Origin: a virus
Lineage: Duplodnaviria > Heunggongvirae > Uroviricota > Caudoviricetes
IMG/VR virus record: IMGVR_UViG_2663763400_000010
Strand: one strand, 5' to 3'
DNA length: 42,975 bases
The notes beneath the pieces were generated by a model. That model saw only the letters and a list, made by a program, of their open reading frames with translations. It ran no database searches and was not told the DNA's origin. Below, piece by piece: positions 1 to 6,849 of this stretch. The position numbers and the translations under genes are program-made. Every line of letters starts with the position of its first letter. Positions within the stretch are counted from its first letter, which is position 1.

Positions 1-198
1 ATGGCACTGGACAGTTATGCATCTCCGAATATTATTCCGGAGCTAAGACAACCGAATGCCGCAGCAGGTAAGATCACGCTAGGGGGGCTGGACAGAATGG
101 CTGTTACGCCCAGTGTGAAGAAAAGAAGGCTAAGTATGGTAGAATTTCCATACGCACAGACCTTGTTATCCGACTATACAGCCTGGAAGGCACTATGA
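1..198 (+). CDS. hypothetical protein, probably the 3-prime end of a gene continuing left of the window
   Basis: ORF reaches coordinate 1; its stop overlaps the ATG of the next ORF (ATGA at 195-198), suggesting an operon. No recognisable motif. Confidence 0.3.
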   Translation: MALDSYASPNIIPELRQPNAAAGKITLGGLDRMAVTPSVKKRRLSMVEFPYAQTLLSDYTAWKAL

Positions 199-983
199 CA
201 AATCTACAACTGGAAGAAAGATTTAGGGCGCTTGAGAAAGATTACGATGCGCTCATTTCCACAAAATATACTGCGCAGAACGTTCTCACTCACACTATGG
301 AAACCTATGTTGATTCTGGTAAATATAAAAACTGGATCGCCAGAGTGAAAAAGTTAATAGAGGACAGCTACGGAAAAGAGTCTGATTATTACAATGACTT
401 CAATACTGTAAACAGCAGGTGGTCTTCTAATTACAATACACTGATCAAAAGTTATAAACCGTTGTTTGATGCGGCGAGAGATGATCTTGCGCACTCTGCT
501 GTCAGTACTAATACTCCTCAAGAAGGTTCGCCGCTGAGCCTCGTACTTAATATTCTTAACAGGTTTCCGACCTTTGTTCGCCAGTTAAAGAGGCGGTACA
601 ACGGCCGTGCGCCGCTTGAAGTTAATGATGAGTATGACGTACAGGATTTGATTTATGCACTGCTGACGCTTCATTTTAATGATATTAGGGCGGAAGAGTA
701 TACCCCCAGCTTTGCGGGCGCGGCCTCAAGACAGGACTTTCTTTTGAAAAAAGAGAAAATTGTGATAGAGGTGAAGAAAACCCGTGAATCTCTGGGAGCG
801 GGTAAAGTTGGTGGAGAGTTGCTTATTGATATGGCGCGCTACCGCGCTCACCAAGACTGCGATACGTTGATCTTGTTTGTATATGACCCGGATTGCTACA
901 TAAATAATCCTTTGGGCGTGAAAACCGATCTGGAATCTAAAGACGCGGAAGGAAAAGTGAAGGTTGTTATTGCGCAGTTCTGA
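195..983 (+). CDS. hypothetical protein with C-terminal PD-(D/E)xK-like nuclease signature
   Basis: 262 aa from ATG at 195, translationally coupled to upstream ORF. C-terminal half shows D...ExK spacing (SRQDFLL...IVIEVKK) typical of PD-(D/E)xK nucleases; N-terminal half looks helical. Family not recognised; lower GC than phage structural genes. Confidence 0.45.
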   Translation: MTNLQLEERFRALEKDYDALISTKYTAQNVLTHTMETYVDSGKYKNWIARVKKLIEDSYGKESDYYNDFNTVNSRWSSNYNTLIKSYKPLFDAARDDLAHSAVSTNTPQEGSPLSLVLNILNRFPTFVRQLKRRYNGRAPLEVNDEYDVQDLIYALLTLHFNDIRAEEYTPSFAGAASRQDFLLKKEKIVIEVKKTRESLGAGKVGGELLIDMARYRAHQDCDTLILFVYDPDCYINNPLGVKTDLESKDAEGKVKVVIAQF

Positions 984-1070: not shown

Positions 1071-1364
1071 TCATCTTTGCCAGGTCAAATCAAAATCTAC
1101 GTGAAAATCCGCAGGCTTAAGCTCGCAACTGCCACCACGCCCAATTAACGACGTTATGTTTACAACGTTTGAACCTGTTGAGATGGCAAGTTGAGTGTCA
1201 TCTGTAAACGTGATGATTAGCATTTCAGTCTGATGAACCTGTACTCCAGTTTTCTGAAAACCAATCTGGACAGATTTCACCGTTTTCCCAACCATTTCAC
1301 GGGCTTGATTGATAGAGTAATTAGCTTCAACTTGTAGGTCATTCCTGAACTTGGGTAGTGTCAT
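1071..1364 (-). CDS. hypothetical small protein (97 aa)
   Basis: Clean ORF with no competing frame; no recognisable motif. Confidence 0.4.
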   Translation of the reverse strand: MTLPKFRNDLQVEANYSINQAREMVGKTVKSVQIGFQKTGVQVHQTEMLIITFTDDTQLAISTGSNVVNITSLIGRGGSCELKPADFHVDFDLTWQR

Positions 1365-1574: not shown

Positions 1575-2399
<825 letters not shown>

Positions 2400-2495: not shown

Positions 2496-2555
2496 TCGTA
2501 GCTCGCCATCATGGGGTGTCGGGGGGCGGAGGTTCAAATCCTCTCGTGCCGACCA
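2496..2555 (+). other. 3-prime fragment of a tRNA-Pro(GGG)-like gene (anticodon loop to CCA); att-core-like junction, not an intact tRNA
   Basis: 2509-2555 reads anticodon loop CATGGGGTG (anticodon GGG), variable loop, T-arm GGAGG-TTCAAAT-CCTCT, acceptor 3-prime strand CGTGCCG, discriminator A and CCA, matching recalled enterobacterial proL. Only degenerate similarity at 2496-2508, and no 5-prime acceptor strand (CGGCACG) or D-arm upstream. Confidence 0.6.
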
Positions 2556-2568
2556 AAAATCCCTTAAG

Positions 2569-2796: not shown

Positions 2797-3044
2797 ATGC
2801 GTATTGAGATCTCCATAGCCAAAGACAAAATGACCAAATGCCAAACGGCGCTGTGGACGCGTTAAAGGAAGAATTAACCCAACACATTGGCAAGCGTTAT
2901 GACGATGTGGAGATGATCGTAAAAGCCACCAGCAACGATAGTTTTTCAGTTAGACATACTGCAGATAAAGATTGAGCTAAAACTTTCGTTCAGGAAACTC
3001 TGAATGATACCTGAGAGTCTACTGAAGAGTTGTTTGTTCACTAG
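2797..3044 (+). pseudogene. dinI-like gene, apparently disrupted (frameshift in an A-run plus two in-frame TGA codons)
   Basis: Frame A encodes [14 protein letters not shown] then stops; the +1 frame continues [71 protein letters not shown]. Together these resemble DinI (MRIEVTIAK...IDAL...LQETWES). Short enough to be missing from the ORF track. Confidence 0.5.
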
Positions 3045-3399: not shown

Positions 3400-3699
3400 A
3401 TGAAATCCGAGACGCTAACTGTCCAACAACTTTTTCAAGACCGCCGACAATACTGTGTTCCATTCTATCAACGTGCCTATGTATGGACTCAGCAAGACCA
3501 GTGGTCAGCTCTACTGGAGGATATCCTAGAGAAAGTACAATCCCGGCTCTCGGGTACAAAACCAACTCCCCATTTCCTTGGTGCGGTTGTACTGGAACCT
3601 CAATCAAAAAAAGGATTATTAGGTGTAGATTCCATACATATTATTGATGGTCAGCAACGATTGACCACTCTTCAATATGTTCTGGCATCCATCCGATTA
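3400..3699 (+). pseudogene. GmrSD-family type IV restriction-like gene, N-terminal fragment (DUF262-type), truncated by IS2
   Basis: Contains FYQRAYVW and [11 protein letters not shown] (DGQQR) motifs of the DUF262/ParB-like domain. ATG at 3400 preferred over the ORF track start at 3340. The frame runs straight into the IS2 left end, where a stop is supplied by the IS. Confidence 0.65.
3695..3699. repeat. IS2 target site duplication, left copy (GATTA)
   Basis: Identical 5-bp GATTA directly abuts both IS2 ends (3695-3699 and 5031-5035). Confidence 0.8.
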
Positions 3700-3790
3700 T
3701 AGACTGGCCCCCTGAATCTCCAGACAACCAATATCACTTAAATAAGTGATAGTCTTAATACTAGTTTTTAGACTAGTCATTGGAGAACAG

Positions 3791-4156
3791 ATGATTGATG
3801 TCTTAGGGCCGGAGAAACGCAGACGGCGTACTACACAGGAAAAGATCGCTATCGTTCAGCAGAGCTTTGAACCGGGAATGACGGTCTCCCTTGTTGCCCG
3901 GCAACATGGTGTGGCAGCCAGCCAGCTATTTCTCTGGCGTAAGCAATACCAGGAGGGAAGTCTTACTGCTGTGGCTGCCGGAGAACAGGTCGTTCCTGCC
4001 TCTGAACTTGCTGCCGCCATGAAGCAGATTAAAGAACTCCAGCGTCTGCTCGGCAAAAAAACGATGGAAAATGAACTCCTTAAAGAAGCCGTTGAATATG
4101 GGCGAGCAAAAAAGTGGATAGCGCACGCGCCCTTATTGCCCGGGGATGGGGAGTAA
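3791..4156 (+). CDS. insC: IS2 transposase OrfA (InsC)
   Basis: [41 protein letters not shown]..., 121 aa, HTH transposase OrfA. ATG at 3791 rather than the upstream alternative start in the ORF track. Confidence 0.85.
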
Positions 4157-5019
4157 GCTTCGTCAGCCGTTGTCTCCGGGTGTCGCGTGCGCAGTTGCAC
4201 GTCATTCTCAGACGAGCCGATGACTGGAAGGACGGCCGCCGCAGCCGTCACACGGATGATACGGATGTGCTTCGCCGTATACACCATGTTATCGGAGAGC
4301 TACCCACATATGGTTATCGTCGGGTATGGGCGCTGCTTCGCAGACAAACAGAACTTGATGGTATGCCTGCGATCAATGCCAAACGTGTTTACCGGATCAT
4401 GCGCCAGAATGCGCTGTTGCTTGAGCGAAAACCCGCTGTACCGCCATCGAAACGGGCACATACCGGCAGAGTGGCTGTGAAAGAAAGTAATCAGCGATGG
4501 TGCTCTGACGGGTTTGAGTTCCGCTGTGATAACGGAGAAAAACTGCGGGTCACGTTCGCGCTGGACTGCTGTGACCGTGAGGCACTGCACTGGGCGGTCA
4601 CAACGGGTGGCTTCGACAGTGAAACAGTACAGGACGTCATGCTGGGAGCAGTGGAACGCCGCTTTGGCAGCGAGCTTCCGGCGTCTCCAGTGGAGTGGCT
4701 GACGGATAATGGTTCATGCTACCGGGCGAATGAAACACGTCAGTTCGCCAGGATGTTGGGACTTGAACCGAAGAACACGGCAGTGCGGAGTCCGGAGAGT
4801 AACGGAATAGCAGAGAGCTTCGTGAAAACGATAAAGCGTGACTACATAAGTATCATGCCCAAACCAGACGGGTTAACGGCAGCAAAGAACCTTGCAGAGG
4901 CGTTCGAGCATTATAACGAATGGCATCCGCATAGTGCGCTGGGTTATCGCTCGCCACGGGAATATCTGCGGCAGTGGGCCAGTGATGGGTTAAGTGATAA
5001 CAGGTGTCTGGAAATATAG
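4114..5019 (+). CDS. insD: IS2 transposase OrfB (InsD), DDE catalytic domain; made as OrfAB fusion by -1 frameshift
   Basis: 301-aa ORF overlapping insC in the -1 frame; A-AAA-AAG heptamer at about 4108-4114. Confidence 0.85.
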
Positions 5020-5030
5020 GGGCAAATCCA

Positions 5031-5035
5031 GATTA
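5031..5035. repeat. IS2 target site duplication, right copy (GATTA)
   Basis: See left copy. Confidence 0.8.
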
Positions 5036-6625
5036 GCATTACGTGCTACGGATCTTTCCAGCTTAGAGGCTCTCATTTCGCCTTGCCTGAAAAACTCAAA
5101 CGAAGACACAATGCGAAATAAAGAAGTAGAACGCTTCAAACTGTGGCCAACTTTTCGGGATCAAACTCATTTTATTCAAAGTTTTAATGTTGAAAATATT
5201 GACGATCTCCGGGACGTATTCTCTGATAGTTTCACGCAGCATGGTACGTTGCGTAAGCATTTTAATCACCCGCCATCACTAGAAGCATTATGTTTTTTTA
5301 CTGAAGCCTTTATAAAATGGATTAAAATAGAAAACCACTCACCACAAGAAAATGCTGTAGCTCTAATTGAGGCTGTCTTAACAGATCTGAAACTGGTAAG
5401 CATATTTCTCGAAGCTGAAGATGATGCCCAAATAATTTTTGAAACATTAAATGGGCGAGGGGCGGAACTTCATGCTACGGATCTTATTCGCAACTATATC
5501 TTTATGTGCGCTGAGCATGAAAATATTAATGCTATTGAATTATATGAAAATGAGTGGAAGAGCTTTGAAGATAAATACTGGTCGGAAAAACAACGCCGTG
5601 GACGTATTAATAAACCACGCATGGAGTGGCTAGTACATGCGACATTGCAATCAGAAAGGCAACGTGAAATTGATCTGTCTCGCCTTTACAATGAGTATCG
5701 TGATTATGTAAGTAAGGACTTGTCTTCACAACGAGCAGATCTGCAAGTAAAGCGCCTCAAACAATATGCATCACAATATAAAGAATTGGTTGATGGTTTT
5801 GGCACAACCCCCATCTCACACTTTGGATATCGCATCGCAGACTATGATGTGACGACACTTTATCCGCTTGCTTTGTTCATTTCGATAGCTAACATCGCTG
5901 ATGATGAGAAAGCAGCCATGTATAATGATCTTGTCTCCTACGTAGTACGAAGAGCCGTATGTGGCCTGACGCCAAAGAATTACAACAATGTATTTATGAA
6001 TGTATTGCGGCACTTGGCTAAAACGGAAATTTCCAGTGTTGAGTTACGTAATATCCTCAATAACTTAAATGGCGAAGCCTCACGTTGGCCTGGTGACTCA
6101 GAATTTCTCAACGCTTGCATCAATGCTCCACTTTATCCTGGCAGGCTCGACGCACCGAAAATGCGCTCAATGTTAACGGAACTTGAAAGAGAACTTTGTC
6201 GCCAAGTAAAGACAGAAAAGCCTGATGTTCCAAATCTTTCTAATCTCGATATCGATCATCTTATGCCTCAAAGTTGGTATTCCTGTTGGCCTCTCGAAAA
6301 TGGTCGTATGGTGACAAATTCAGATGCTACGGTATTGAACCAAATTGTTCTGTCTGGAACCGATCTTACCCCTGAACAGCTACTGGTAAGGAAACGGCAA
6401 CAAGCGATATCTACTTTGGGAAATCTAACTTTGCTTAACCTTAGCGTAAACCGTTCTGTTCAGAATGCTGTATTTCTGAAAAAACGTGATGCTCTCATCG
6501 TCCACACCAATCTACGACTGAACATTCCACTTATAGTTAAGGATAAATGGGATGAGGATGAAATCCTGGAGCGGGGTAAAAAGTTGGGGGAAATTGCATT
6601 GAAAGTATGGCCAAAACACGATTAA
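5036..6625 (+). pseudogene. GmrSD-family type IV restriction-like gene, C-terminal fragment (DUF1524/HNH-like), downstream of IS2
   Basis: Same frame as the N-terminal fragment once IS2 and one GATTA copy are removed (...ASIRL | ALRATDLSS...). C-terminal region has LDIDHLMPQSW ... NLTLLNLSVNRS, the His-Me finger-like motif of DUF1524. The ORF track start at 4994 lies inside IS2 and is an artefact. Confidence 0.65.
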
Positions 6626-6720: not shown

Positions 6721-6849
6721 CTAGGTCTCGGACTTTGTACCGCTTATCTTGTCTTCAAAAATCAGCTCGCATCCTGCACAGTTCAGCGCATTACGTTGTA
6801 GATCTGTGTTCTGGTCATTTGTTGACACACGTACATAGCCAATAAGCAT
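6721..6849 (-). pseudogene. pin: truncated Pin/Gin/Hin-family serine DNA invertase (first 42 codons only)
   Basis: Minus-strand translation MLIGYVRVSTNDQNTDLQRNALNCAGCELIFEDKISGTKSET then TAG; near-identical to recalled invertase N-termini (MLIGYVRVSTNDQNTDLQRNAL...). No invertase-like sequence in any frame downstream. Below the ORF track length cutoff. Confidence 0.7.

Follow-up and report, generated by a model that had tools for sequence, protein, structure and literature searches.

Organization of the interrupted gmrSD locus

We examined a gmrSD gene in a 42,975-nt stretch of caudoviricete DNA (the window; IMG/VR record IMGVR_UViG_2663763400_000010), where it lies in the stretch that runs from a truncated pin gene (pin'), which adjoins the tail-fibre genes, to the terminus of an SfII/SfV-like myovirus prophage, and is divided in two by an insertion sequence (Table 1). 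The upstream ORF opens with the ATG at 3400 and runs into a TAG supplied by the element's initial three bases (3700-3702), and the downstream frame is in phase with it. When 3400-3699 is fused to 5036-6625, the product is an ORF of 1890 nt, comprising 629 codons and a stop, with no internal stop. This in-frame join of about 629 aa had been anticipated in the original prediction, and it is no chance fit because the 1890 nt show 0 mismatches to the intact gene of E. coli UTI89 (UTI89_RS14420, L001:5701-7590). The motifs quoted in that prediction all occur in the repaired protein, at residues 22 (FYQRAYVW), 83 (DGQQR), 505 (DIDH) and 568 (NLSVNRS), and QQLFQD, close to the start of the 5' fragment, is the nucleotide-binding region. 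A search of a 15-billion-protein collection for the exact 100-aa upstream product returned a single match, KLX99681.1, from one contig.

Direct reading of the sequence bore out the earlier placement of IS2 and its GATTA duplication. The inserted element is an intact IS2 variant, collinear with IS2A of K-12 with 57 mismatches in 1331 positions (95.7% nucleotide identity); its InsA is 100% identical to that of IS2A, OrfB differs at 14 of 301 residues (95.3% amino acid identity), and the ORFs match the Pfam families HTH_Tnp_1 (1.8e-19) and rve (5.6e-20). Under the ISfinder naming rules, this level of nucleotide identity is borderline: the element could count as an isoform or require a new name. 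Numerous E. coli chromosomes and plasmids carry copies 100% identical to the element, which PGAP names only 'IS3 family transposase', not IS2.

Table 1. Features at and around the interrupted gmrSD gene (positions in the window)
Feature	Position	Strand	Description
tRNA-Pro 3' end, 58 nt	2498..2556	+	att remnant, marks the prophage boundary
DinI-like pseudogene	2797..3014	+	final prophage gene on the att-remnant side; UTI89 annotation mapped to the window
gmrSD 5' fragment	3400..3699	+	codons 1-100; QQLFQD (residues ~9-14), FYQRAYVW (22-29), DGQQR (83-87)
Left GATTA duplication	3695..3699		5-bp target-site duplication, gene nt 296-300
IS2 variant (IS3 family)	3700..5030	+	1331 bp, same orientation as gmrSD
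IS2 terminal inverted repeats	IRL ~3700-3741; IRR ~4989-5030		imperfect, ~41/42 nt
IS2 orfA	3791-4156		
IS2 frameshift site	4108-4114		A6G (AAAAAAG), -1
IS2 orfB	4114-5019		
Mechanically called ORF	4994-6625		starts at a GTG within the IS
Right GATTA duplication	5031..5035		target-site duplication
gmrSD 3' fragment	5036..6625	+	codons 101-629 and stop; rest of GmrSD_N (to ~256), connector, GmrSD_C His-Me nuclease with D507-H508 (DIDH) and N522 (PLEN)
Truncated pin-type serine invertase	6727..6849	-	N-terminal ~41 codons only, convergent with gmrSD; Pfam Resolvase 6.5e-09

Homology to the same prophage at tRNA-Pro/yejM in APEC O78 and 50EVA begins at the tRNA-Pro remnant, and ARAGORN detected no complete tRNA, the tRNA-like stretch being the 3' fragment only. 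The truncated pin gene is annotated as a pseudogene in UTI89. The order pin', gmrSD, prophage end agrees with the earlier suggestion that the gene occupies a cargo slot, given that e14 has pinE-mcrA in the corresponding position and that SfII has oac/gtrABII between tfa and int.

Just outside the prophage, 1 kb from gmrSD, which lies just inside it, is an intact gene for CMoRE/PD-T4-3 (window 1575-2348), an hmC-directed nuclease identical at 257 of 257 residues to PDB 9U7U and reported to degrade 5hmC/5ghmC DNA (PMC12923530). The ssrA/prophage junction of the UTI89/ST95 lineage bears a pair of hmC-directed Type IV nucleases that are unrelated to each other and separated by this distance, and the host studied here keeps an intact hmC-directed nuclease despite the interruption of gmrSD. 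UTI89 itself carries, in addition to CMoRE next door, a second GmrSD homologue.

The repaired protein matches a known Type IV restriction enzyme

The family assignment made in the original prediction was upheld by profile-HMM searches. On the repaired protein, Pfam GmrSD_N (PF03235; 6.8e-34, residues 8-256) is covered over its whole profile (1-199/199) and GmrSD_C (PF07510; 3.5e-20) matches residues 451-619, both above the Pfam cut-offs, and the PADLOC mREase_IV model PDLC03655 aligns over the full length (1-629/629, 1415 bits). A complete GmrSD_N domain with DGQQR exists only in the reconstruction, GmrSD_N being split at residue 100 in the window. The protein is identical at 629 of 629 residues to the published GmrSD of UTI89 (the 'UT enzyme') and is 93.0% identical to Eco94GmrSD, with D507, H508 and N522 conserved. 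Judged by its sequence, the repaired gene is a GmrSD-family Type IV restriction endonuclease of the UTI89 type, and the enzyme is thus already described. The C-terminal signature proposed earlier (DIDH...NLSVNRS) needs one amendment: both elements are present, but mutagenesis of Eco94GmrSD places the catalytic Asn at N522 (PLEN), not in NLSVNRS. NCBIfam profiles gave no match to the repaired protein, and phmmer against the PDB returned only a weak N-domain match to 9JFL, without recovering BrxU.

The reconstruction is a stand-alone, single-chain, two-domain ORF with neither a cognate methyltransferase nor partner defense genes. We considered and rejected membership of a multi-gene system (BREX BrxU, Ssp SspE or Dnd): neither the 43-kb window nor the UTI89 annotation contains BREX, Dnd or Ssp partner genes, and the SspE models of PADLOC align with no more than the initial ~100-130 residues (E-values 1e-10 to 1e-16), compared with the full-length type IV match. 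The sole methyltransferase is a phage Dam-type gene of the replication module, ~26 kb away.

The insertion is recent and strain-specific

Intact copies in related prophages, which the original prediction had suggested looking for, are readily found: gmrSD is carried by 306 of 5,426 complete E. coli genomes, the UTI89 copy being identical, and the exact intact protein sequence occurs on at least 1000 contigs. Deposited phage genomes included none with this gmrSD, the best tblastn match reaching 24-25% identity. The evidence supports a recent and strain-specific IS2 insertion, because the gene has accumulated 0 substitutions, the flank differs from UTI89 by 1 SNP in 34 kb (together with one tail-fibre inversion), and the IS-gmrSD junction of the window is absent from the 5,426 complete E. 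coli genomes. The single contig that yields the 100-aa fragment and the 100% identity of the element to copies elsewhere point the same way. The insertion is therefore young, as had been proposed, but the 5-bp duplication cited in favor of this is not the main evidence; identity to UTI89 and the absence of the junction elsewhere are stronger.

Besides the window, where IS2 is inserted after nt 300 of the gene, gmrSD has been interrupted independently in 50EVA, by an IS2-like element after nt 123 (target-site duplication at nt 119-123), and in MS20654, by an IS3 after nt 990. In APEC O78 and CEA212U, IS2 lies outside an intact gmrSD. The elements lie outside the gene in the latter two strains and at other sites within it in 50EVA and MS20654, and we therefore rejected the idea that the insertion was inherited from a common ancestor or marks one hot spot. 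PGAP calls the 602-aa gmrSD remnant of 50EVA a 'DUF262 domain-containing protein'.

Loss of function and alternative explanations

We consider it highly likely that 3400-6625 represents a UTI89-type prophage gmrSD cut after codon 100 by recent IS2 transposition and probably null. Extrapolating from the published biochemistry of Eco94GmrSD and BrxU, the ParB-like NTPase domain (GmrSD_N/DUF262, with DGQQR) would have to bind and hydrolyse a nucleotide before the His-Me-finger nuclease at the C-terminus (GmrSD_C/DUF1524, D507-H508-N522) is licensed to cleave infecting phage DNA that contains 5-hydroxymethyl- or glycosyl-hydroxymethyl-cytosine, as in T-even phages. By ending translation at residue 100, IS2 would leave both nucleotide-handling motifs on a fragment without the remainder of the NTPase domain or the nuclease. 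Cleavage by Eco94GmrSD of glc-5hmC and 5hmC DNA is stimulated by ATP, and its D507A, H508A and N522A mutants are dead (PMC4437046); in BrxU, the DGQQR mutations Q101A and R102A abolish both defense and DNA cleavage (PMC8565348). Because the split at residue 100 falls inside the NTPase domain, the interrupted allele is most probably null, a conclusion drawn from this position and the BrxU mutagenesis, and the strain would therefore have lost whatever T-even restriction the enzyme gave.

The extent of the defense lost is uncertain because the purified UTI89 protein (UTI89_C2960) is inactive in vitro: neither nuclease activity nor DNA binding was seen under any of the conditions tried, with T4, T2 and T6 DNA and 5mC, 5hmC and glc-5hmC oligonucleotides as substrates (PMC4437046 supplement). 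The activity of the intact allele rests accordingly on reported in vivo phenotypes, namely, restriction of T2/T6-type phages, but not T4, by UTI89 in an IPI*-insensitive manner (PMC4437046) and restriction of RB69 by UTI89 GmrSD (PMC6024577). The in vitro result, the attribution of the phage phenotypes to the 'E. coli UTI89 strain' in the same supplement, and the intact CMoRE nearby would all fit a neutral insertion into an allele that was already weak or inactive, with T-even restriction coming from CMoRE/PD-T4-3 or from the second GmrSD homologue. We regard this as unlikely, given that the catalytic and NTPase motifs are all intact in an allele 93% identical to the active Eco94GmrSD, and that the wide occurrence of the exact protein suggests maintenance. 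Moreover, He et al. and Thomas et al. took the UT enzyme to be active in vivo with a distinct specificity (PMC4437046, PMC6024577), and PD-T4-3 expressed in K-12 restricts T4, which UTI89 does not, so that the UTI89 phenotype is not accounted for by CMoRE on its own. The purified protein may have been inactive for want of a cofactor or of the right form of substrate.

Residual activity of the two fragments, assembled as a split GmrSD, appears very improbable. The CT596 GmrS/GmrD pair, a two-chain cloning artefact, is still active (PMC4437046), so splitting need not inactivate a GmrSD enzyme, and ECOR17 has a natural two-gene GmrS1+GmrSD2 system. However, the CT596 split falls between domains, the first chain ending near residue 310 and the second restarting at M395, whereas the break in the window lies inside the GmrSD_N fold. 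Furthermore, the downstream part, whose first candidate starts are a GTG inside IS2 or M126, showed neither a promoter-like site nor an obvious ribosome-binding site, and a promoter/terminator scan yielded counts no higher than in shuffled controls, with nothing at the IS2-gene junction.

The knock-out might instead have been adaptive, with gmrSD insertions repeatedly selected because GmrSD is costly and CMoRE covers the same phages. The three independent insertions are compatible with such selection, as is the reported toxicity of over-expressed CT596 and Eco94 GmrSD, which show star activity on unmodified DNA (PMC4437046). Yet at least 2 of the 306 carrier genomes plus the window amount to a low rate, in keeping with IS elements moving at random in ExPEC genomes, which are rich in them; the IS2 copies just outside gmrSD in APEC O78 and CEA212U suggest that the region may simply be IS-prone, and 50EVA lacks the CMoRE flank. 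Adaptive loss is accordingly improbable, and we hold with similar reserve the wider notion of gmrSD as a repeatedly targeted, dispensable layer of a two-nuclease anti-T-even module. Were that notion true, IS elements could silence gmrSD because of CMoRE redundancy and GmrSD autotoxicity, the gene might even be restored by precise excision at the 5-bp repeat, and some phenotypes historically ascribed to the 'UT enzyme' could belong to CMoRE.

The interruption in the window is real but ordinary, an IS knock-out of a routine kind in an already described gene. What is new relative to the first reading is the intact CMoRE/PD-T4-3 nearby, the two IS knock-outs in other strains, and the reported in vitro inactivity of the UT protein. 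The experiment proposed with the original prediction, phage challenge of the expressed, repaired allele, has largely been done on the identical allele (PMC4437046, PMC6024577). The source strain is a near-clone of UTI89 with an otherwise identical prophage in which gmrSD has been naturally disrupted, probably to a null; alongside UTI89 it offers a ready isogenic comparator for the role of the UT GmrSD in its native host. Defense predictions at this locus are liable to misreading, as the gmrSD pieces are annotated as 'DUF262 domain-containing protein'.

Relationship to known systems

The closest counterpart is EcoUTI89 GmrSD (UTI89_C2960, WP_000834402.1), with 0 differences in 1890 nt, the same prophage and the same neighbors; the window copy differs in being cut by IS2, and the adjoining tail-fibre invertible segment is in the opposite orientation. 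Eco94GmrSD and EcoCT596 GmrSD, the founding Type IV glc-hmC-dependent restriction endonucleases, share the collinear 629-aa chain, the D507-H508-N522 and DGQQR residues, and carriage on SfII-like prophages. The repaired protein departs from Eco94GmrSD by 44 substitutions, which concentrate in the N-terminal 160 residues, and the reported phage range and IPI* sensitivity of these enzymes differ from those of the UT enzyme (PMC4437046). BrxU, the first structure of the family, likewise combines DUF262 and DUF1524 in a nucleotide-gated nuclease in which DGQQR and DH are essential, but is only distantly related (~13% identity to GmrSD, by the BrxU authors' figure) and is embedded in BREX, unlike the solitary gmrSD of the window.

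With respect to genomic position, the nearest parallel is e14 pinE-mcrA of K-12, where the cargo at the prophage end, just beyond pin and the invertible tail-fibre genes, is likewise a Type IV modification-dependent nuclease. The nuclease families differ (McrA versus GmrSD), pin is truncated in the window, and gmrSD faces pin', whereas mcrA is co-directional with pinE. For the insertion itself, yaiX::IS2A in K-12 provides the precedent: as in the window, an element of 1331 bp with a 5-bp duplication and a transposase made by orfA/orfB frameshifting splits a gene into two annotated fragments, the window copy being a variant of IS2A.

An IS2 variant interrupts a published Type IV restriction gene

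The gmrSD gene at 3400-6625 of the window is a previously published Type IV restriction gene that IS2 has split and most probably inactivated, and its disruption is a real but ordinary event; both the corresponding E. coli UTI89 gene and its prophage cargo position were known beforehand. The original prediction described a single ORF split by IS2 with a GATTA duplication, its reading frames continuous without the element, and this proved correct throughout. The upstream ORF starts at the ATG at 3400 and stops at a TAG formed by the element's first three bases, the downstream frame, beginning at 5036, closes with a stop codon at 6623-6625, and joining 3400-3699 to 5036-6625 yields an ORF of 1890 nt that encodes 629 residues and is free of internal stops. 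This in-frame join is not due to luck, because the 1890 nt match the intact annotated UTI89 gene (UTI89_RS14420, WP_000834402.1) with 0 mismatches, which also provides an intact copy of the IS-free allele.

Profile searches of the repaired protein likewise upheld the GmrSD-like DUF262 plus DUF1524 architecture, with Pfam matches to GmrSD_N (PF03235; 6.8e-34; residues 8-256) and GmrSD_C (PF07510; 3.5e-20; residues 451-619). The PADLOC Type IV model PDLC03655 covers the protein end to end (1-629/629, 1415 bits), and the match to PADLOC SspE models is confined to the first ~100-130 residues. The protein is identical at 629/629 residues to the UTI89GmrSD sequence shown by He et al. 2015 (Fig. S1; PMC4437046), and its 93.0% identity to Eco94GmrSD equals the figure given by those authors. 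D507, H508 and N522 of Eco94GmrSD, each of which abolishes cleavage when substituted by alanine (PMC4437046), are kept with unchanged numbering. The predicted nuclease motif thus stands for GmrSD_C and D507/H508, with the minor correction that NLSVNRS does not supply the catalytic Asn; this is N522, in PLEN, because its alanine mutant is dead in Eco94GmrSD and the residue is conserved at the same number.

The element is collinear with K-12 IS2A, with 57/1331 mismatches (95.7% identity); its InsA is the same as that of IS2A, and 14/301 OrfB residues differ. Imperfect terminal inverted repeats (~41/42 nt), the frameshift site AAAAAAG at 4108, two ORFs with Pfam matches to HTH_Tnp_1 and rve, and 100% identical copies on many E. 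coli chromosomes and plasmids, labeled 'IS3 family transposase' by PGAP, therefore indicate an intact, presumably active IS2 variant, and the name IS2 is fair if so qualified.

Sequence comparisons establish that the insertion is young and strain-specific, as originally predicted from the intact 5-bp duplication, and on firmer grounds: the IS2 junction sequence turned up in none of the 5,426 complete E. coli genomes searched, just one contig among ~15 billion proteins carried the exact 100-aa fragment, and the gmrSD halves carry 0 substitutions. The intact 629-aa protein is found on at least 1000 contigs in the same collection.

Features of the window and of the comparison loci from E. coli APEC O78 (L002), CEA212U (L003), 50EVA (L006) and MS20654 (L007)
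Feature	Location	Strand or orientation	Details
REase_DpnII-MboI domain protein	195-983	+	262 aa; PF18742, 9.5e-49
CMoRE (= PD-T4-3), GIY-YIG protein	1575-2348	-	257/257 identical to PDB 9U7U (E. coli APEC O1 CMoRE)
tRNA-Pro 3' fragment	2498-2556		58 nt; next after the dinI pseudogene
GATTA repeats	3695-3699, 5031-5035		5-bp target duplication flanking the element
Inserted element	3700-5030		1331 bp; read from window sequence
Tail-fibre/tfa invertible segment	6911-8849	inverted vs UTI89	1.94 kb; 99.85% identity
50EVA gmrSD::IS2-like	L006:3001-6226	same orientation	after nt 123; TSD nt 119-123
MS20654 gmrSD::IS3	L007:1501-4651	opposite orientation	after nt 990
APEC O78 IS2	L002:3239-4569		upstream of intact gmrSD
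CEA212U IS2	L003:3001-4331		inside CMoRE gene, truncating it; gmrSD intact

Consequences of the insertion

The mechanism is known from published work on related enzymes. Eco94GmrSD cleaves DNA that contains glc-5hmC or 5hmC, depends on Mg/Mn and is stimulated by ATP; it restricts T4 lacking IPI >10^6-fold (PMC4437046). In BrxU, which belongs to the same family, DUF262 must bind and hydrolyse a nucleotide before DUF1524 can cleave, with both defence and cleavage lost in the DGQQR mutants Q101A and R102A (PMC8565348). The insertion in the window splits the protein at residue 100, just past DGQQR (83-87) and within the GmrSD_N fold. The resulting N-terminal product, 100 aa long, would carry both nucleotide-handling motifs and nothing more, and any downstream product, from a GTG within IS2 at 4994 or from M126, the first in-frame ATG, would lack them. 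By contrast, in the two-chain CT596 artefact, which is active, the split lies between domains: the protein ends near residue 310 and restarts at M395, lacking an 84-aa connector (PMC4437046). A promoter scan found no promoter-like site at the IS2/gene junction. Taken together, these points make a null allele by far the likeliest outcome.

How much defence was lost is a separate matter. The UTI89 enzyme is described as IPI*-insensitive and as not restricting T4 (PMC4437046), with T2, T6 and RB69 restricted (PMC4437046; PMC6024577). Purified UTI89_C2960 was inactive in vitro with every substrate and condition tried, and the phage phenotypes are ascribed to the 'E. coli UTI89 strain' (supplement, PMC4437046), which leaves room for the loss having been small. 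UTI89 reportedly encodes a second, uncharacterised GmrSD homologue, UTI89_C5048, elsewhere in its genome (supplement, PMC4437046), probably also carried by the source strain as a close relative, which further tempers the claim that GmrSD was lost from the host.

Neighboring nucleases and other insertions

Just beyond the prophage boundary, at a distance of 1 kb from the disrupted gmrSD, is an intact CMoRE gene (PADLOC PD-T4-3 model, 7.4e-137). CMoRE is a Type IV nuclease degrading 5hmC/5ghmC DNA (PMC12923530; GmrSD has 0 occurrences in that paper). Two unrelated hmC-directed nucleases are thus adjacent in the window, and the host retains the intact one. The 262-aa protein also partially matches PADLOC 'Aga_Helical-REase' models and is possibly the product of a third defence gene of nuclease type, located in the ssrA-proximal islet; a 97-aa ORF at 1071-1364 (-) had no family match. 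In CEA212U, CMoRE is broken and GmrSD is not.

The gmrSD disruptions in 50EVA, where PGAP annotates a 'DUF262' remnant of 602 aa whose start lies within the IS, and in MS20654 are independent of that in the window. With IS2 copies also inserted close to, but outside, an intact gmrSD in APEC O78 and CEA212U, the neighborhood seems IS-prone. It is improbable that IS elements silence GmrSD repeatedly, perhaps under selection or reversibly, with the neighboring CMoRE allowing its loss to be tolerated.

Prophage context

Across all 42,975 bp, three differences separate the window from the UTI89 chromosome: IS2 with its duplication, the tail-fibre inversion, and a single SNP in 34 kb. The region holds what looks like a complete myovirus prophage, extending from tail-fibre genes to integrase, whose morphogenesis module is 97-98% identical to those of Shigella phages SfII, SfI, SfIV and SfV. 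The tRNA-Pro fragment, present without a second copy in the window, marks the prophage end: in APEC O78 and 50EVA the module of dinI pseudogene, gmrSD and truncated pin directly adjoins an intact tRNA-Pro (yejM locus), with homology beginning inside the tRNA. The prophage here sits beside ssrA rather than at tRNA-Pro.

The invertible segment has ~20-bp crossover repeats, AAAC[G/C]TTGGTTTGGGAGAAG, at both ends. Because pin is cut to ~41 codons in the window strain and UTI89 alike, yet their orientations differ at 1 SNP/34 kb, inversion is apparently still occurring, the invertase presumably being supplied in trans.

With the truncated pin on one side, beside the tail-fibre genes, and the dinI pseudogene on the other, gmrSD occupies a prophage cargo slot, as predicted. 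This reading is supported because known phages carry cargo at equivalent positions: pinE-mcrA in e14, and an acyltransferase, an IS and gtrA-gtrB-gtrII between tfa and int in SfII. Unlike the e14 pinE-mcrA arrangement, gmrSD is convergent with the truncated pin.
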